From Mobula hypostoma (lineage: Eukaryota), in the NCBI RefSeq assembly GCF_963921235.1, contig NC_086097.1, positions 92,320,001-92,384,000 of the forward strand: a stretch of DNA of 64,000 bases, given 5' to 3'. Shown one piece after another: positions 39,604 through 63,744 of the stretch. The translations under genes were made by a program, and so were the position numbers. Below the pieces are notes generated by a model, which had not been told where the DNA came from, ran no database searches, and was given only the letters and a program-made list of their open reading frames with translations. The first letter of the stretch is position 1. Each line of letters starts with the position of its first letter.

Positions 39604-39852
39604 GGAAAGGAAAGGAAAGGTACGCCGCATCCGGAGTTTCTCCGGTTAGCGGACGATTTCCCTCCACGTAGTGGGGAACCGCGTACGAGGTGAGTTACAG
39701 CAGTGGTTTGCCATTACCTTCTGCCAGTTGAGTTTCCAAAGAGATCACCAGCTCGTAACCCAGCATGGATGGAAGGCGTGCAGGGGAGCCGGCTAGATTT
39801 GAACTGGGGACCTTTCGTCCCGAAGTCCGACGCTGATGCCACTACGCCACCA
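39604..39852 (-). mobile_element. tRNA-headed SINE with RTE-type tail
   Basis: Minus strand TGGTGGCGTAGTGG (A box), AGTTCAAATC (B box), GAAGGTAATGGCAAACCACTGCTG and a (CCTTT)n tail. Confidence 0.75.
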
Positions 39853-53703: not shown

Positions 53704-53885
53704 TCATCACCCCATACTGCAGATCCAACCTCTTATCTTTAAATGATTATTTTATTCCTATCTCTTTTCTGTCTGATAACCAACCCTTAACTTGCACCAA
53801 TAAACTGCCACCAATACTGTGTGCAATACACATAAAAGTTGCTGGTGAACGCAGCAGGCCAGGCAGCATCTCTAGGAAGAGGTGC

Positions 53886-53921
53886 AGTCGACGTTTCAGG
53901 CCGAGACCCTTCGTCAGGACT
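53886..53921 (-). ncRNA. Minimal type I hammerhead ribozyme (left arm)
   Basis: AGTC-CTGACGA-AGG(GTCTCGG)CCT-GAAACGTC-GACT. Confidence 0.7.
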
Positions 53922-54216
53922 AACTGAAGGAAGAGTGAGTAAGGGATTTGAAAGTTGGAGGGGGAGGGGGAGATCTAAAATGATAGGAGAAGACAGGAGG
54001 GGGAAGGATGGAGCCAAGAGCTGGACAGGTGATAGGCAAAAGGGATACGAGAGGATCATGGGACAGGAGGTCCGGGAAGAAAGACGGGTGGGGGGGGGGA
54101 CCCAGAGGATGGGCAAGGGGTATATTCAGAGGGACAGAGGGAGAAAAAGGAGAGTGAGAGAAAGAATGTGTGTATAAAAATAAGTAACAGATGTGGTACG
54201 AGGGGGAGGTGGGGCA

Positions 54217-55147
54217 TTAGCGGAAGTTAGAGAAGTCGATGTTCATGCCATCAGGTTGGAGGCTACCCAGACGGAATATAAGGTGTTGTTCCTCCAACCT
54301 GAGTGTGCCTTCATCTTTACAGTAGAGGAGGCCGTGGATAGACATGTCAGAATGGGAATGGGATGTGGAATTAAAATGTGTGGCCACTGGGAGATCCTGC
54401 TTTCTCTGGCGGACAGAGCGTAGGTGTTCAGCAAAGTGGTCTCCCAGTCTGCGTCGGGTCTCGCCAATATATAAAAGGCCACATCGGGAGGACCGGACAC
54501 AGTATATCACCCCAGCCGACTCACAGGTGAAGTGTTGCCTCACCTGGAAGGACTGTTTGGGGCCCTGAATGGTGGTAAGGGAGGACGTGTAAGGGCATGT
54601 GTAGCACTTGTTCCGCTTACAAGGATAAGTGCCAGGAGGGAGATCAGTGGGGAGGGATGGGGGGGACGAATGGACAAGGGAGTTGCGTAGAGAGCAATCC
54701 CTGCGGAATGCAGAGAGAGGGGGGAAGGGAAAGATGTGCTTAGTGGTGGGATCCCGTTGGAGGTGGCGGAAGTTACGGAAAATAATATGTTGGACCCCGA
54801 GGCTGGTGGGGTGGTAGGTGAGGACCAGGGGAACCCTATTCCTAGTGGGGTGGCGGGAGGATGGAGTGAGAGCAGATGTACGTGAAATGGGGGAGATGCG
54901 TTTAAGAGCAGAGTTGATAGTGGAGGAAGGGAAGCCCCTTTCTTTAAAAAAGGAAGACATCTCCCTCGTCCTAGAATGAAAAGCCTCATCCTGAGAGCAG
55001 ATGCGGCGGAGACGGAGGATTTGCGAGAAGGGGATTGCGTTTTTGCAAGAGACAGGATGAGAAGAGGAATAGTCCAGATAACTGTGAGAGTCAGTAGGCT
55101 TATAGTAGACATCAATGGATAAGCTGTCTCCAGAGACAGAGACAATA
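54217..55147 (-). pseudogene. Truncated Penelope ORF: RT thumb plus GIY-YIG endonuclease
   Basis: DVYYKPTDSHSYLDYSSSHP, CKRNKCYTC and GVIYCVRSSRCGLLYIGETRRRLGDHFAEH. The N-terminal part of ORF 54217..55239 is read from the inverted arm. Confidence 0.9.
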
Positions 55148-55662
55148 TTTGCTGAACACCTACCCTCTTTCCGACAGAGAAAGCAGGATCTCTCAGTGGC
55201 CACACATTTTAATTCCGCATCCCATTCCCATTCTGACATGTCTATCCATGGCCTCCTCTACTGTAAAGATGAAGCCACACTCAGGTTGGAGGAACAACAC
55301 CTTATATTCCGTCTGGGTAGCCTCCAACCTGGTGGCATGAACATCGACTTCTCTAACTTCCGCTAATGCCACACCTCCCCCTCGTACCCCATCCGTTACT
55401 TATTTTTATACACACATTCTTTCTCTCACTCTCCTTTTTCTCCCTCTGTCCCTCTGAATATACCCCTTGCCTATCCTCTGGGTCCCCCCTCCCTCCTTGT
55501 CTTTCTTCCCGGACCTCCTGTCCCATGATCCTCTCGTATCCCTTTTGCCAATCACCTGTCCAGCTCTTGGCTCCATCCCTCCCCCTCCTGTCTTCTCCTA
55601 TCATTTTGGATCTCCCCCTCCCCCTCCAACTTTCAAATTCCTTACTCACTCTTCCTTCAGTT

Positions 55663-55698
55663 AGTCCTGACGAAGGGTCTCGGCCTGAAACGTCGACT
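55663..55698 (+). ncRNA. Minimal type I hammerhead ribozyme (right arm)
   Basis: Stem I AGTC/GACT, core CTGACGA and GAAA, stem II AGG/CCT, palindromic ACGT stem III, and a GTC site ending at 55694. Confidence 0.7.
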
Positions 55699-56057
55699 GC
55701 ACCTCTTCCTAGAGATGCTGCCTGGCCTGCTGCGTTCACCAGCAACTTTTATGTGTGTTGCTTGAATTTCCAGCATCTGCAGAATTCCTGTTGTTTGCGT
55801 TTTTAAAAACCAATACTGTGTGGTCTGATTTGTATAATAATCTCCCTCACAGCGTCTTATCTGGAAGGCCATCTGAAATTCCAAACACACTACAGTTTGT
55901 CCTCACACAGTCTGCCTGCAAAGTTGGCAAACTTTTCTTAGTATTTGCTTTTTGATTTTTTGCTAGTTTACTCTTATATTCTATTCTATTGATCACTTTT
56001 TGAATCACCATTTACTGGTTTCTGAACGGCACCCAAACCCAAAACCTACAACTAAGT

Positions 56058-56293: not shown

Positions 56294-57666
56294 AAAAAAA
56301 CAAATCTGCTGATACTTAAAATCCTTTCCATTCAGCTTAATTTTACTTAGTATAGGTTGGTGCCTTTTTTTTCAATCGAATATTACTTCATTTTCACCGA
56401 GAGTTGTGAAATATTTCTTTAATTGTATTTCACTGTTATATTGTGCCTGCAAACATAAAATTTTTTCTAATTTTCTATTTTGTTCCAAGTTACTGCATTT
56501 ATTAGTGCATAACTCCCTAGTTTTAAACGTGTTTGTCAATCTCAAACAAATTACGAAATCCTATCCTATTGTAAACACTCTTCCCAAGGGATCCTTATTC
56601 TAATGAGATTAAGATTAAATCCTGCCTCACTGCTGTTAATCAGATTTTTAAAAACCCTGTCCCCTAGCTGGGTTCACAATACTATCTTGAAGGTATTCCT
56701 TGAACTCAATTACCTTTGCCAATTTGAGAATGAAAGTTGATTATGATTACTGCATTACCTTTAACTCTTTCGGGCTTCAGGAGCTTGTAAGGTATCAAGA
56801 ATCCTGGTAGGGTGAGCACTGAGGAAGTACCTCCTCCTGTGGGGCAATCTAGAATGAGGGGATACTGTTTAACAACAAAGGATCCCCATTTAAAACAGAT
56901 GGGATGAATTAATTTTTCTCTCAGTGGGTAGTGAGGTTATGGGACCCTCTTCCTCAAGGAAGGTGGAAGTGGTCTGTGAATATTTATAAGGCAGATGTAG
57001 ATGTATTCTTGGTAAGCAAGGGGGTGAAAGAATACCAGAGAGGACAGTAATCTGGATTTGAGGTTGCAAGCAGATCGACTTGATCTTCTTCAATAGCAGA
57101 GGAGATGGGCCAAATAGCCTACTCCTAATTTGTTTGTTCTGATGTTATAAAACTTGTATGGCTTGAATGATGGTAGCACCCTTTGCCACAGGTGAGAGCA
57201 AAAGACAGGTTGGATAAGAGACAAAGGGAGAATATTTTCATTTCTCCTACCTTATTTCTGAGGGTACCCATACATGGGTGAAAAATAATACATGTCCTTT
57301 TCCTTCATCTCTAGACTTGGCCATTCCAATGATGCCCTGGCCAGCCCTTCCAACTTCCACCCTCCATATTCTTAAGCAGCTTTCATTCTTAAGCTTGTAT
57401 CCTTTCTTGTGTTCGCTGATCAGGTTCTGTTCGGGTCAGGTAGTTCCTCAGTATTAAAATCCTCAGCTTAGGTTCATTCTCCATTGCTCTCCCACGTACC
57501 CATCCCTCCTCCACACCCACAACCCTATAATGCAGCATTTTCCCAATCTTAGCTCGTTGACACCCCCGATTTAAATTGCAACACCTGGAGGGGCACCCCC
57601 AGGTGCTCCAAACCTCAACTTTCCCCTAAGACCTTATAAAAACGATGATCATGCTTTAAATAATAT

Positions 57667-57850
57667 GGGGTGTTCAAGGAGAGGAAATACCTCTGGTGAA
57701 GGGGCTTGGTGTGTCCACTCCGGGCCAGCTCACTCACCTTTGGTCCCCCACTGGACACTCGGCTCTCACCTGTGGCTCCAAGTAGCTGTTTGTATGCGAC
57801 AGCAGCCACGCCCTGGTATGCTGCTTCAACAGGTGGCTAAACCAGGTGAG
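57667..57850 (+). ncRNA. Predicted HDV-like self-cleaving ribozyme, copy 1
   Basis: P1 GGGGTGT/ACGCCCT, P2 CTCACCTG/CAGGTGAG, P3 GGC/GCC, L3 TCCAAGTA, P1.1 CC/GG and J4/2 GGCTAAA. Confidence 0.65.
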
Positions 57851-58183
57851 GGTGGCCAGCAGCTTCATACTTCAGAGAGATAGGGACACACTTGTCCTAG
57901 CGTGCAAAGTCAGATCTGACAGACTAGGCGGAGAAGAAGCACAGTGAGATTCGGTGGTACTACAACACTTGGAGGAGAGTGTAGGGCATGACAAGGCACA
58001 AAAGACTTCATGGTCACCCACTGCAGCCAAGGAAGACCCCAGTTTGTGACGTTTGTTCATACCACTGGACCCAGAATTCTGAGATCGGGGGAGCAGAACT
58101 GCCCCAGTGCGACGGCTTTTCCACTTTAAAAACTCTCCCGCACAAGTTTCCTGTCATCGTTGGACATGATGGACAACCACCAC
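57667..58183 (+). mobile_element. Non-coding RTE-type retroposon headed by an HDV-like ribozyme
   Basis: TSD AATAA(T/C)ATG at 57659-57667 and 58184-58192, and a (CAC/CAA)n tail. The first ~380 nt are homologous to 61575-61947 (minus). Confidence 0.75.
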
Positions 58184-58384
58184 AATAACATGCCATAATA
58201 TCACATTTGTATTGTGAGTCCTCCCGTGAGTCATAGAATCTCTAATTCATACAACAAAAGAATTGTCCTCTCAGGCCAACTCGCCCATGCCAACCAAGAT
58301 GCTTACCTGAGCTAGTACTATTTGCCAGTGTTCAGCCCATAACCCTCTAAACCAAGGGTTCCCAACCTAGGGTTTACTGATCCC

Positions 58385-59555
58385 TCAGCCTCTGTACCTC
58401 CCTCTTCAACTGGATCCTCAGCTTCCCAACTGGAAGACCACAATCTGTATGGATTGGTAATAATATCTCCTCCTCGCTGACAATCAACACTGGTGCACCT
58501 CAGGGATATGTGCTTAGCCCACTGCTCTACTCTCTCTACACCAATAACTGTGTGGCTAGGCATGGCTCAAATGCCATCTAAAAGTTTGCTGATGATGCAG
58601 CCCTTGTTGGCAGAATCTCAGATGGAGACAAGAGGGTGTACAAGCGTGAGGTGTATCAGCTACTTGAGTGGTGTCACGACAGCAATCTTGTACTCAATGT
58701 CAGTAAGACCAAAGAGCTGATTGTAGACTTCAGGAAAGTTAAGACGAGGGAACATAAACCACTCTTCCTAGGGGGATCAGAAGTGGAGAGAGTGTGCAAT
58801 TTTAAGGTCCTGGGTGTCAATATCTCTGAGGATCTAACCTGGTCCCAACATATTGATGCAGCTATAAAGAAGGCAAGACAGCAGCTATATTTCATTAGAA
58901 ACATAGAAACATAGAAAAACCTACAGCACAATACAGGCCCATCATCCCACAATGCTGTGCTGAACATGTACTTACTTTAGAAATTACCTAGGGTTACCCA
59001 TAGCCCTCTATTTTTGAGGAATTTGAAGAGATTTGGTTTGTCACCCAAAACACTCAAAAACTTCTGCAGATGTGTTGTGGAGAGCATTCTGACAGGCTGC
59101 ATCACTGTCTTGTATGGGCTGGGGTTCCGCACAGGACCGAAAGAAGCTACAGAAAGTTGTAAAATTAGTCCGCTCCATCTTGGGTACTAGCCTCCCTAAC
59201 ATCCAAGACATCTTCAAGGACCGATGCTTCAAAAAAGTGGCCTCCATTATTAATGCCCCCCATCATTATACCATCAGGAAGGAGGTACAGAAGCCTGAAG
59301 ACACACACTCAATGATTCAGGAACAGCTTCTTCCCCTCTGCCGTCTGATTCCTAAATGCACATTGAACCCAAGAATACTATCTCACTTTTTTAAAATATT
59401 TCTGTTTTGCACTATTTCTAATTTAACTATTACATACATATACTTACTGTAATTGCTTTACTTATTTTTTCTATACTATCATGTACTGCTGCCACTAAGC
59501 TAACATGTTTCATGACATATACCAGTGAAATTAAACCTGATTACAATTCTGAACT
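58385..59555 (+). mobile_element. Rex/L2-type LINE 3' half with an inserted CR1 3' tail (~58897-59013, minus)
   Basis: [22 protein letters not shown] and KTKELIVDFRK. The insert matches the CR1 tail at 11447-11555. Confidence 0.85.
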
Positions 59556-59747
59556 TCTTTTCCAATTATTTTTTGAGGCCAAACTTAGAAAACAGGAGAA
59601 GGAACAACTTTAGTGAAAGGGAGGAGGTTTTTGGGAAGGGATAATGATTCCTGATCCATGGAGCAGATGGAATATGACGTCTGAACCTTGGGAATGAGTA
59701 TAGAATCCACAGTAATGGAGCTGGTGGGACGAGGAACCCTAGAGACA

Positions 59748-62488
59748 TTAATTGTCGGGCCCAAGAAAGCTGAGGTAAACAGAAAGGGACAGAGAATGAA
59801 TGAAGCTTTGAGATAGCCTAACCCCGCAAAAATGTCCCTGGAAAGTAATTCAAGCATGTGTTGATTTTCCCTATCCTTCCATCACATCTGGTACGATGCT
59901 TTCTCCACATGTGTGGGACTACAGTTTGCAAATCAGGATAATTGAGTGATCCTGACATGATTCTGGGACTTCCTTAGTTCTGTAGAAGCAACAATTACGT
60001 CTCCATCGTGTTCTTTAAAGCGGGGGGGGGGGTGTGGCACCTTTTCAGTGAATTCCAAAGGAGTATTACTTGCAGAGCCTCTGCAATGGCTCAACAACCA
60101 AGTGTTGCAAACACGTAGGAGCCTGGAGTTTTTGCAATCACGTACTTTATTTCTTTGGCAGGTTGCTAATTTTTCACTCTGATGAATTTCCATGAAATCT
60201 CAGTTGCAGTATAAGTAATTAATTGTAGAAAAGTTCCTGGGAGTTTCCTTTTTGCTGATCTAATCCATCCGATCTTCCACATCAGAACACAAACCTCAGA
60301 CCTTATGAAGGGTCTTAGCTGTTTTCCTCCACCATTTTGTGTGTGCTGCACACTTACCCTTTCACCCCACCATAAACTCTGACCAAGATGCTAGGAAAAT
60401 AACTGATGAAATACTAGAACATTGCGCTCTTCAGTTCTTCAGTGATAAGGCACAGGTAACAGATCAGGTATTGTAGGTCTGGGACTGGGCTTGGGGGTTA
60501 AGGGTGTATGCCCATAGAGACCATGTTTTTGGAACTGGGATGATGAGTTCCAGCAGACTTGGGACCAAATTCCAAATTCTAGTGGACAAGTCAGTCTAGA
60601 TAACTTTGATAAGCCTATGTTATATATGGGAATAGTTCTCATTGCCACAAATCAATTCTAATTAATGAGACTTGGTCTCACAATGAGTTCTACATGGCCC
60701 CTTGAGAAACAGATTATATTAAACAGATTTTAAAGTGTCCTATGTTGAAATTAGTAATTCTGGACAAATGTAAAGCCAGTTAGATTCCCTTCAATTGTTT
60801 TCACAATAATTTTCACACCAAGTTTTCCAAGAACCTGTTTGACATGTTGTTCAAAGCCAGTGTACATTCCTTTTCTTTTATTATTAAACAATATATATTA
60901 GTTCCTCTCCTTAATACACAACAGCACTTTAAACCTCACCACCATCCCTACCCAGCCACAAGTCAATTCTTATATTTGGTCACACTTTGTACATTAGCAT
61001 ACTTAGATGTTTTTGACAACACCACTGTTGTTGGCCGAATCAACAGTAGTGTCAACTTGACATATGGAGGCGGGGGGGTGGGGGTGCGGAGATTGAAAAT
61101 CTGAAAATCTGCTGGAATGGTGCCACACAACAACCTCTCACTCTACGTCCGCACAACCAAAGACTACAGCAGGAAAAAGCTGGAGGTCCATGAACCAGCC
61201 TCAATGGGGGTTTGGAGGCGGAGGGATGTCAGTAACTTTAAATTCTTTTGTATTATCATATCAGATGACCTGCCCATGGGCCAGCAATGGGGCATTTTGA
61301 GCTATTCTGGAACCCATATGAGAGAAAATAAGTGCTGGCACTGGAGAAGATCCAGAGGAGTTTTACGAGAGCACTTGTACTCACTGGAGATTAGAAGAAT
61401 GAGCGGGGGGGGGGGGAATCTCATTGAAACATTTTTTTTCGTTAGGTCGCATCTGGAAATTCCAGTTGGTGGACGATTTCACTCCACGCAGCTCTGACAT
61501 ATTGGGAAATCATGTTCGTGGCAGGTTACAGCAGTGGTTTGCCTTTGCCTTCTGCCGGGTGAGATCACCACCTCTTGCAGTGGATGACCAGGACGTCTAA
61601 GTGCCTTGTCGTGCTCTTAGCGCTCCACCATGCCTGCTGCCCGGCCTTCTTGACCGTTGGACCATTAATCGGTCTCCTCCGCTCCATCCGCCAGGGCCAG
61701 ACTTCACATACTGGGACAGGCAGATCCCCTACCTCACTGAGGGTCGAAGACCCAGTTGGCTACCCTCACCTGGTTTGGCCCATCTGCCAAGACGGTTTAC
61801 CAGGGTGTGGCCGCTGCGCGTGTTACAGCTACTTGGAGCCACAGGTGAGAGCTGAGCGCCAGGCGGGGACCAAAGGTGGACGAGCTGCCCTGAGAAAGGG
61901 CATGGCAGACCCCCCCACCAGGGGTGCTACCCCTCCCTAGACACCCCATACACCCCCATTGAAACATACTGAATATTAATATAAACATCCTCTCCACATA
62001 CACTCTATCTCGGAGTTTTAACATTGAAATATACCAAGTATTAAAACTCCTCAATAGAGTATATGTGGAGAGGATGTTTCTATTGGTAGGAGAGTCTAGG
62101 ACCAGAGAGCATAGCTTCAGAATAGAAGGACGTCCCTTTAGAACAGAGATGATGGAGGAGAATCTATGGAATTCATTGCTACAGGCGGTTGTGGAGACCA
62201 AATCATGGGGTATATTTAAAGCAGAGGTTTAAACGCTGATACTACAAAGCTTGGTGGGAAGATGACCTGTGAGAAAGGTTCAAGGATTCTGCAAAGGAAT
62301 CTGAACACGTTAATAGATAGATCACGTGGTCACATGGTCTTATGGTCCTATTACATTAGCGGTTATATATGTTATATGTTTGAGGATGTGAAAGCTAACT
62401 AGAAATAAAATCTATTTTGCTTTATTTACCCTGACCCCAGTAACACCGCAACTTTATCAGTGAAATAAGCTTTACCATGTGTTTGTCC
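59748..62488 (-). CDS. Candidate last three exons (62488-62430, 60390-60358, 59769-59748) of an unidentified gene: GQTHGKAYFTDKVAVLLGSG-ILVRVYGGVKG-FLGPDN*
   Basis: Each exon has a pyrimidine-rich AG acceptor. Donors are AGG|GTAAAT and AGG|GTAAGT. Phases 0/2/2 join into an open frame. No homology recognised. Confidence 0.25.
61433..61956 (-). mobile_element. Non-coding retroposon headed by an HDV-like ribozyme, inserted in a CR1 fragment
   Basis: 11-bp TSD CATTGAAACAT at 61422-61432 and 61957-61967, and a short polyA. The tail is shared with the SINE at 39604-39852. Confidence 0.8.
61765..61947 (-). ncRNA. Predicted HDV-like self-cleaving ribozyme, copy 2
   Basis: P1 GGGGTGT/ACACCCT, P2 CTCACCTG/CAGGTGAG, P3 GGC/GCC, L3 TCCAAGTA, P4 CCGTCT/AGATGG and J4/2 GCCAAA. 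Confidence 0.65.
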
Positions 62489-63744
62489 CTGCTTGAGATA
62501 AGATCAGGAAAAAAATAGAAAAGCATGGAAACTGGCCGAAAGCAGAGTCAACATACCCTGTCATCTTCCCTTTGAATTATTATGAATAATATATTAATCT
62601 CGGTTGTGTTATTTTAGTAGGTTTGAATTTTCTGCTGTGAGACAGGTCCATCAAATGAAGTCCTTGTGCTAAGCAATTTTCTTGGGTGAAGTACATTGCA
62701 AAAGGTTGCTACATAAAATGCCCTCATGAGTTTGAAGGAATGACACATTAGCACAGACAGAGAACTGACTGATGGCAGGAAGAAAGAACAAATCAGGTGG
62801 GCATCGTGTTCGGTGCCTCAGGGATCAGTTGTGGCCTGTCAAATGTTCGCATTAAGGCTTGTTTGAAATGATGGGGAGTGTTGAGTATACAGGATTGCTG
62901 ATACTACAAAGCTCGGTGGGAAGGTGACCTGTGAGAAAGGTTCAAGGAATCTGCAAAGGAATCTGAACACGTTAATGGAGTGGCTGGCAAAGTGTTCGAT
63001 TGAACAGAATATAGGAAGACTAGAGTCTGTTCATTTTGTTCAGTAGAAAAGGCCGAAAAAACGTTACCACTTTGCATATCTTTTTGAGAAGCCACATTGG
63101 CACGCAGGTCATACAAGTCCACCAGGATGGCTTTTCTTTCATAAAGGTCTCATAAGTCTGGGAACACGTATATGTGGCTCCAGGCATGTTAGACCTTGCA
63201 AGCTAATCAGTTTAAGGACAAGAAAGCACATCAATAGCTAACTGGATGTCCATCCTCAATTTGAATACCAAGGTGAAAGTCACAAACTAGACATAACTTA
63301 GAAGCCCCACTAATCTTGAGAGACATACAACAGGATGAGGGAAGACCAAGATTACCCAAAGGCGCACTATCAACACAAACCCCTATCACATTCCACGAAT
63401 GGTAGAGCACATTGCTCCAAGATGAGACAGATAAGGTCATAAGGCCATAAAATACAGGAGCAGAATTAGGCCATTTGGCCCATTGAGTCCTCTCCACTAT
63501 TTCATTGTGGCTGGTCGATTTCCCCTCTCTGCCCCATTTTTCTGACTTCTGTCCGTATCCCTCCATGCCCTGACCAATCAAGAGTCTATCAATTTCCACC
63601 TCAAATATATCCCAATGATTTGGTCTCCACAGTTGCCTATGGAAACATCAACATCAAGATGATGCTATGATTGAGTACCTTCAGTTAGGTGGGCTTGGAA
63701 AGATTCCCCACCACCATTAAAATAAAAAAAAACTGAAACAAATG

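Follow-up and report, generated by a model that had tools for sequence, protein, structure and literature searches.

Two related elements in the window

The window analysed here is a stretch of 64,000 nt from the genome of Mobula hypostoma (assembly GCF_963921235.1, contig NC_086097.1, positions 92,320,001 to 92,384,000 of the forward strand), and it contains two related non-coding retroposons, called copy A and copy B, whose 5' heads fold like the ribozyme of hepatitis delta virus (HDV), with paired regions P1 to P4, a two-base-pair P1.1, a loop L3 and the joining segments J1/2 and J4/2. Judging from sequence comparison, the head is probably an HDV-like self-cleaving ribozyme that carries a helix within L3 and a copy of its P1 strand used as a clamp, and it is found at the front of abundant non-autonomous retroposons. 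Both loci had been proposed in a first-pass annotation of the window, and they lie where it had placed them, with every structural part that it had named.

Copy B (61433 to 61956, reverse strand) is a complete non-autonomous retroposon of 524 nt that belongs to the young family B1, the copies of which are 91–94% identical to it. It is flanked by a target-site duplication (TSD), of which the 5' copy, ATGTTTCAATG (61957 to 61967, reverse strand), directly adjoins G61956 and the 3' copy (61422 to 61432, reverse strand) follows the tail ...CCTAACGA(A)n. Copy A (57664 to 58182, forward strand) belongs to the old family A, whose best-scoring copies are 83–87% identical over the ribozyme, and it ends in ...GGACAACCACCA with no poly-A; no TSD of at least 8 nt was found around it. 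The two copies align from TATGGGGTGT for about 400 nt at about 75% identity. The first-pass annotation had drawn copy A as intact, but its first base is T57664, the first of the two GGGGTGT repeats with which the family begins is missing, and the element is truncated by 6 nt at its 5' end. This truncated copy is probably dead, and the P1 drawn in it is probably the strand that closes J1/2.

Families, copy numbers and tails

Genome-wide counts were taken over the 3.48-Gb assembly. The first look yielded 2,274 candidates for family A, of which 40 were scored, at 83–87% identity to copy A, and 2,457 candidates for family B, of which those scored were 91–94% identical to copy B. A 24-nt core that covers P2, P3, L3 and the beginning of the L3 hairpin has 5,471 matches at no more than two mismatches, and its reversed control has none. 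Three identical ribozyme cores (G000:C9:96115616, 96122562 and 96129508) are spaced by 6,946 bp, and they seem to be one copy caught inside a tandem segmental repeat.

The elements of families A and B are non-coding and about 525 nt long, with TSDs of 9–13 nt; some 400 nt of head and body are common to the two families, which differ in their 3' tails, which end in ACCACCA or in a (GAC)n-type microsatellite. The tail of family A ends in ...GGACAACCACCA without poly-A, and a search for it returned 40 places in the genome. In most copies of family B a (GAC)n-like microsatellite comes after the final ...GCGACCTAAC of the tail, while six B copies carry other tails, four of them A-like and two (L034 and L057) of a further variant, so that at least four different tails are found on one ribozyme head. 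The two loci are copies of such non-autonomous retroposons without long terminal repeats, which are probably best described as bipartite non-autonomous long interspersed nuclear elements (LINEs) with exchangeable LINE-type 3' tails.

The commonest tail of family B is also found on an unrelated short interspersed nuclear element (SINE) of about 250 nt, with 5,505 first-look candidates. Given this shared tail, the SINE and the ribozyme-headed element probably use the same LINE partner. One such SINE lies within the window (39610 to 39852, reverse strand), and its last 130 nt or so are the commonest family-B tail. This stretch at 39.6 kb was considered as the partner LINE itself and was ruled out, being the SINE of about 250 nt. 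Eleven open reading frames (ORFs) between 37.5 and 47.6 kb have no Pfam match, and Blast comparison of the tails with the collected loci showed no LINE. Contigs from four sequencing runs were also compared: three of them cover repeats only, and the fourth also covers unique parts, with a difference of about 5%.

Fold of the ribozyme-like head

The strict descriptor used for the fold consists of a G-initiated P1 of 7 bp, a P2 of at least 7 bp and a P3 of 3 bp directly followed by UCCnnGy, with an L3 of at most 45 nt; the 3' strand of P3 (P3') is then directly followed by the 3' strand of P1 (P1'), the GG of P1.1, the P4 hairpin, and CNAA just before the 3' strand of P2 (P2'). On both strands of the window only the two loci match it, and none of 200 dinucleotide-preserving shuffles does. 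In copy A the ribozyme-like region covers 57667 to 57852 of the forward strand. Its sole GGGGTGT (57667–57673) has its J1/2-closing partner at 57753–57760, followed by P2 (57763–57772 with 57843–57852), P3 (57774–57776 with 57805–57807), the beginning of L3, TCCAAGTA (57777–57784), the extra L3 hairpin (57785–57803), P1' (57808–57814), the GG of P1.1 (57815–57816), P4 (57821–57836) and the J4/2 C at 57837.

In copy B the corresponding parts read from 61956 to 61763 on the reverse strand. The first GGGGTGT (61950–61956) is the proposed 5' strand of P1 and the second (61941–61947), which the first-pass annotation had taken for P1, is the proposed J1/2-closing strand. J1/2 (61852–61949) consists of a linker of 2–3 nt, a long irregular hairpin domain similar to P1.2, with compensatory pairs between families, and a second linker of 2 nt. 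It is followed by the 5' strand of P2, CTCTCACCTG (61842–61851), which forms 10 bp with CAGGTGAGGG (61763–61772), by the 5' strand of P3, GGC (61838–61840), invariant and paired in 19/19 rows of the alignment described below, and by the 5' part of L3, TCCAAGTA (61830–61837), which contains the U and the G for the reverse wobble as well as the CC of P1.1. The L3 hairpin GCTGT/GCAGC with its 7-nt loop (61813–61829) precedes the block formed by P3' (GCC), P1' (ACACCCT) and the GG of P1.1 (61800–61811). P4, CCGTCT-TGGC-AGATGG (61780–61795), has one pair that is C-G in family A and U-A in family B, and J4/2, GCCAAAC (61773–61779), contains the candidate catalytic C at 61778.

Seen at the level of the families, and with the first repeat as P1, the fold starts with GGGGUGU/ACACCCY and continues with a 10-bp P2, a 3-bp P3 (GGC/GCC) and an L3 beginning with UCCAAGUA; after a hairpin of 17 nt (19 nt in family A) and one purine come P3', P1', GG, a 6-bp P4 and the J4/2 GCYAAAC. 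The strand order P1, P2, P3, L3, P3', P1', P1.1, P4, J4/2, P2' is that of the nested double pseudoknot. Two details of the earlier description had to be corrected in this respect: P2 has 10 bp and not 8, and the G.U wobble drawn at position 1 of P1 is a product of CpG decay. The base opposite G1 is C in 21/30 young (B) copies and 14/29 old (A) copies, and T in the rest; it is also C in families C and D, which are introduced below. Since the site CCCCGG is a CpG, the G.U pair reflects decay and the family state is G-C. The alternative local hairpin that had been noted, CCTGGT/ACCAGG, does exist, but it is perfect only in CpG-decayed copies.

The pairing holds across the 59 copies examined (30 of family B and 29 of family A), where 93–95% of cells are paired, against 35–49% when the partners are slid by 1–3 columns. 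The L3 sequence TCCAAGTA is exact in 29/30 B and 19/29 A copies, and P1.1, in which the CC of L3 pairs with the GG after P1', is paired in 57/59 and 55/59 copies and is invariant. J4/2 reads GCYAAAC in all families, and its C, retained in 30/30 B and 24/29 A copies, would be the catalytic base. P4 is a 6-bp hairpin, with a 1-nt deletion on its 3' side in copy A.

For J1/2, minimum free energy (MFE) folds of the A and B consensuses and of copies of the two further families share one architecture, in which P1 and P2 are separated by 2–3 unpaired bases, an irregular hairpin of considerable length and 2 more unpaired bases. The helix that closes this hairpin is formed in these folds by the second GGGGUGU and the 5–8 bases located just 5' of P2 (GGACACUC, CGCUC, ACACUC or UGCACUC). 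In copy B the second repeat pairs with 61854–61858 and neighbouring bases, as given by the MFE folds of the four families and by pair counts.

The 5' end and the doubled GGGGTGT

The family starts with GGGGTGTATGGGGTGTC..., that is, with two GGGGTGT units in tandem, and the element start in copy B and in its family is located 9 nt upstream of the G1 proposed earlier, at G61956 and not at G61947. Both repeats are present in 29/30 family-B copies, and the doubled 5' end, taken as 27 nt, is matched at 997 places in the genome, with none for the control. Exact TSDs of at least 9 nt (9–13 nt) that end between -1 and +2 nt from the first G are found in 13/30 B copies, and in 7/30 they end exactly at the first G; the endings at +1 and +2 are ambiguous, given that these TSDs end in G. 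For the other 17/30 copies this strict search, with its minimum of 9 exactly matching nt, came up empty. One family-B copy (L060) starts at the second repeat. The first repeat of family A is kept at 6 or more of its 7 bases in 14/29 copies and is missing in 6/29, which indicates that small 5' losses are common. In both copies of family C the flanks are unrelated up to the first repeat. The only copy of family D (L069) has at its 5' end a (TA)n run and a third unit that resembles GGGGTGT and is decayed.

These ends support the view that the 5' end of the family is the HDV-like fold, in that the start marked by the TSDs falls on the first base of a P1 strand; what did not stand is the position of the start. 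The cleavage proposed 5' of G57667 is not supported by the family ends and TSDs, which are found at the first GGGGTGT, a strand that copy A does not have. From these ends, the cut in the family is predicted to fall most likely just before the first GGGGTGT, which in copy B means 5' of G61956 and not of G61947. The second repeat, according to the folding models, most likely closes the long structured J1/2 domain.

It may be argued that the second GGGGTGT is P1 after all (from 57667 of copy A and 61947 of copy B onward), that the RNA is cut there and that the first repeat is a leader that is removed. The repeats are identical and either can pair with ACACCCY; moreover, the second repeat, or a few bases ahead of it, is where copy A and L060 start, six of the 29 A copies lack the first, and in four more (L002, L004, L009 and L013) the first repeat reads GGAGTGT, which leaves an A.C mismatch at position 3 of P1. 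However, new copies could not inherit a first repeat that had been cut off, and it is found in 29/30 B copies, in 14/29 A copies and in both C copies. The TSDs abut the first repeat, the doubled end is found at 997 places, and the MFE folds of the four families lock the second repeat in the J1/2 closing helix. A cut at the second repeat is consequently regarded as quite unlikely.

The extra hairpin in L3

The first-pass annotation had described an additional stem at the 3' side of L3, and this stem is present in both copies and in all four families. It consists of a hairpin of 17–19 nt plus 1 nt, placed between the eighth base of L3 and P3'. The stem, GCUG/CAGC with a U-A or U.G pair, is identical in the four families, while the loop varies between them in sequence and in length. 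The short L3 of canonical HDV-like ribozymes (7–8 nt) is not what is found here: the first 8 nt, UCCAAGUA, fit it, and the hairpin comes after them, so the U and the G of the reverse wobble both lie 5' of the insert. The possibility that the inserted hairpin is itself P3 and L3 was ruled out, since there is no CC in its loop with which P1.1 could form and the strands would come in the wrong order.

The pattern that includes the hairpin has 285 exact matches in the genome and none in the control, and the same flanks with only 1–9 nt between them have 8 matches, against 1 in the control. A subfamily or ancestor devoid of the hairpin was looked for among the latter, and the 8 scattered matches look like single-copy deletions. 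The comparison of 285 with 8 matches indicates that the hairpin is a constitutive part of the motif.

Conservation and covariation across four families

Old repeat copies decay neutrally, and for this reason lineages were compared. The 57 positions counted as core are those in the strands of P1, P2 and P3, in the eight opening bases of L3, in P1.1 and in J4/2. Between the CpG-corrected consensuses of A and B the core is identical at 55/57 positions, the ribozyme periphery at 112/139 and the downstream body at 136/189 (Fisher p 0.003 and 2e-5 for the contrast with the core). Over all six pairs of families A–D the core is identical at 52–56/57 positions and the periphery at 60–79% (p 3e-4 to 1e-6).

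Families C and D come from public metagenome contigs. The exact 24-mer has no match among the metagenome contigs, and a degenerate pattern found four loci there, one of which (L068) is a chance match; the other three have full cores, L067 and L070 being family C and L069 family D, and they were confirmed by the covariance model R1. Their contigs are probably host DNA of other animals in the samples. The scan of viral contigs gave no match, and that of genome contigs gave a single one (L071), which was likewise dismissed as chance.

When the four families are aligned in 19 rows, changes on both sides are seen in 12 pairs, against 4.1 ± 1.5 in shuffles, none of which reaches 12 in 500 trials, and against 1–4 in slid controls. 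A pair of P4 is C-G in 11 rows and U-A in 8, and a pair of J1/2 is G-C in 9 rows and A-U in 8. Both copies of family C show in the J1/2 helices two further changes from G-C to A-U and one from C-G to U-A, and in the only family-D copy, L069, a C-G pair of P2 has become A-U. Several other changes are one-sided, with pairing retained through G.U. Covariation had been proposed as a check of the fold, and the answer is divided: P4, J1/2 and, in one copy, P2 compensate, but P1 and P3 are invariant.

These data also bear on the idea that a GC-rich repeat merely happens to look like the fold and has no functional RNA structure. In its favour it can be said that the fold was first spotted by eye and that the z-scores of the nested MFE folds are modest. 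On the other hand, the descriptor matches 0/200 shuffles, the core and the periphery differ sharply in conservation in four families, the 12 double-change pairs compare with 4.1 in shuffles, and the 5' end of the element falls exactly at the P1 strand. Taken together, these results make chance resemblance extremely improbable.

Known systems

HDV-like ribozymes set the 5' ends of R2, R4, R1, RTE, Ingi/L1Tc and LOA elements (Kojima 2018, PMC5786205; PMC3774820), and RTE, Ingi and R2 give rise to bipartite non-autonomous elements that keep the 5' end of the LINE (PMC5786205; PMC3414825). Hundreds of intergenic HDV-like copies have been described, conserved downstream and variable upstream, and non-autonomous elements make use of them (PMC6765202). 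In R2 the length of J1/2 goes from 23 to more than 700 nt and P4 is variable (Eickbush et al. 2013, PMC3774820), the 5' junctions vary when the RNA is cut at the element's own end, and the U and G of L3 form a reverse wobble in HDV-like ribozymes (PMC3774820). The present motif resembles the ribozymes of R2, R4, RTE, L1Tc, Ingi, LOA and R1 in its nested order, its long J1/2 and its variable P4 (PMC3774820; PMC5786205), and resembles those of elements without long terminal repeats in a predicted cut at the first base of the element, with small variation at the 5' junction (PMC3774820). It departs from them in the 17–19-nt hairpin in L3, the G-C pair at the cut site, the tandem P1 strand, the cartilaginous-fish host and the lack of an HDV-type match in Rfam.

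With regard to J1/2, the closest likeness is to drz-Agam-2, a ribozyme from a mosquito, which also has a short linker, a stable J1/2 helix (P1.2) and a long P2 (12 bp, and 10 bp here) (PMC4908430). This architecture reportedly draws P1 and P2 close to each other in a "pinch" and makes cleavage faster (PMC4908430), and structured J1/2 regions, short linkers and an extended P2 speed up large HDV-like ribozymes (Webb et al. 2016, PMC4908430). Unlike in drz-Agam-2, the 5' strand of the closing helix is here a copy of the P1 strand, the domain has about 90 nt, there is an extra helix in L3, and activity is a prediction. As a whole, the elements are similar to the SIDEs of R2 (PMC3414825), to NARTc/SIDER of trypanosomatids (PMC3383444; PMC4035085) and to bipartite LINEs (PMC5786205) in having no ORF, a ribozyme (here a probable one) at the 5' end, a LINE-type 3' tail and thousands of dispersed copies with TSDs. 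Unlike SIDE-type elements, they combine one head with at least four tails, and one of these tails is also found on an unrelated SINE of about 250 nt.

Rfam 15 gave no match at gathering over the whole window, and no HDV-type family appeared even at E<=10 in 57400–62300, in agreement with the expectation that standard models would miss the motif. In the literature searched, chiefly as abstracts, neither a helix inside L3 nor a duplicated P1 strand was found, and the novelty is claimed over that ground; the same literature contained no paper on HDV-like ribozymes in cartilaginous-fish genomes. The setting, a non-autonomous retroposon headed by a ribozyme, is thus of a known kind, and the L3 helix is probably a new structural variant.

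Cleaving and non-cleaving readings of the head

The family structure, the exact 5' ends, the pattern of conservation and part of the covariation are direct observations; catalysis, the choice of the P1 register, the order of folding and the mode of transcription are what we infer from them. Because catalysis is inferred, the head may also be read as a conserved 5' structure that does not cleave, such as an internal promoter or initiator, or a site for a protein of the partner LINE, with the HDV likeness being vestigial, from a LINE ancestor, or coincidental. Known elements offer partial precedents: the same 77 nt of L1Tc are both promoter and ribozyme (PMC3383444), and the R2 protein binds a pseudoknot within the ribozyme region of R2 (PMC6765202). 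P1, P3 and P1.1 are invariant and do not covary, and both the insert in L3 and the G-C cut-site pair differ from what canonical HDV-like ribozymes show. Against this, the highest conservation coincides with the catalytic positions of HDV (the UCC...G of L3, the GG, the C and AAA of J4/2, and the strands of P1, P2 and P3), and P4 and J1/2 drift with compensation, as they would in a working fold. No head of the type used by RNA polymerase III is detectable either: ARAGORN gives no tRNA-like match in 57000–62500, and Rfam gives no tRNA, 5S or 7SL match at E<=10 in 57400–62300. A role in translation would serve no purpose in a non-coding element. A head that does not cleave is therefore considered unlikely.

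The self-cleaving ribozyme, which is the preferred reading, has to be set against a number of observations that weigh against it. The strict descriptor was written after the candidate was known, as was the core set, and few independent lineages stand behind the covariation (four families, of which C is represented by two copies and D by one decayed copy). For the L3 hairpin stem, P1, P3 and P1.1, all invariant, the support is conservation without covariation, and no HDV-type Rfam family is reached even at the relaxed threshold. Nested folding favours a P3 extended to UGUGGC/GCCACA, in competition with P1 and with the upper end of P2, and the 3' domain reaches fold z-scores of just -1.3 to -2.0. 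The nested consensus given by RNAalifold also picks the extended P3; it is not HDV-like and is weak (-16.8 kcal/mol), as is expected for a pseudoknot. The pair at the cut site is G-C and not the usual G.U, a wobble that is typical of HDV-like ribozymes but not strictly defining. L3 is the catalytic loop, and the fold could in principle lose its activity through an insert at this place. The first 27 nt (61930–61956 in copy B, reverse strand) fit the G-quadruplex pattern GGGG N5 GGGG N6 GGG N1 GGGG, and the G-rich 5' end could form a G-quadruplex instead, in competition with P1 or with another role at the RNA's 5' end. Finally, the GGAGTGT of the four A copies is possibly a subfamily marker, and it touches on which of the repeats serves as P1.

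In the mechanism proposed, and since no promoter of its own is recognisable, the element would be transcribed inside longer host transcripts. As the RNA emerges, the second GGGGUGU would pair with the stretch just 5' of P2 and close the long J1/2 hairpin domain, and the first GGGGUGU would stay free to form P1 with ACACCCC once the core has been made. The partner of the second repeat is transcribed long before P1', so this repeat is likely to be already paired when the core forms, and its early sequestering would account for the presence of the first repeat at genomic 5' ends. The core would comprise the 10-bp P2, the 3-bp P3, the L3 UCCAAGUA, the 2-bp P1.1, the 6-bp P4 and the J4/2 GCYAAAC with its catalytic C, and the 17–19-nt hairpin between the eighth nucleotide of L3 and P3' would be a constitutive peripheral helix. 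A cut 5' of the first G (G61956 in copy B) would give the RNA an exact 5' end, and the reverse transcriptase of the partner LINE would then copy the cut RNA into new sites. With respect to the first-pass annotation, the comparative evidence upholds the fold in outline, and what had to be given up is the cut site of the family, the G.U pair and the intactness of copy A.

A wider proposal, for which the case seems evenly balanced, is that L3 accepts a helix ("P3.1") and that such ribozymes form a subclass missed by all current descriptors and models, maybe common in vertebrate retroposons. Within the same proposal, the tandem cut-site strand would be a clamp that closes J1/2, steers folding towards the cut at the first copy, and leaves a usable P1 strand in daughters shortened at the 5' end, such as copy A.

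Possible consequences of a helix in L3

L3 belongs to the active site of delta-type ribozymes, in which it makes P1.1 and contains the U.G reverse wobble, and searches for these ribozymes assume that it is short. If a helix is tolerated in this loop, L3 has to be defined less tightly in structure-based searches, and vertebrate repeats could turn out to hold many ribozymes hidden until now. Any copy transcribed in the sense orientation inside a host transcript would, if active, cut that transcript, and with thousands of copies this ties a repeat family to RNA processing in a cartilaginous fish in a way that can be tested. The doubled cut-site strand, in closing J1/2, would be a natural case of the "pinch" architecture known from mosquito ribozymes, and it offers a simple system in which to follow how one of two identical substrate strands is selected by a ribozyme.

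Other features of the window

Directly 5' of copy B there is a near-perfect hairpin of about 100 nt (61981–62081). The microRNA models that it matches remain below threshold (mir-999 scores 30.7 bits, and its gathering score is 58), and it is probably an inverted-repeat element rather than a known microRNA. Two adjoining pairs of inverted repeats, with arms of 349 and 277 nt that are 96% complementary, are found at 53823–54435 and 55148–55761, and their structure suggests a young fold-back or head-to-head insertion.

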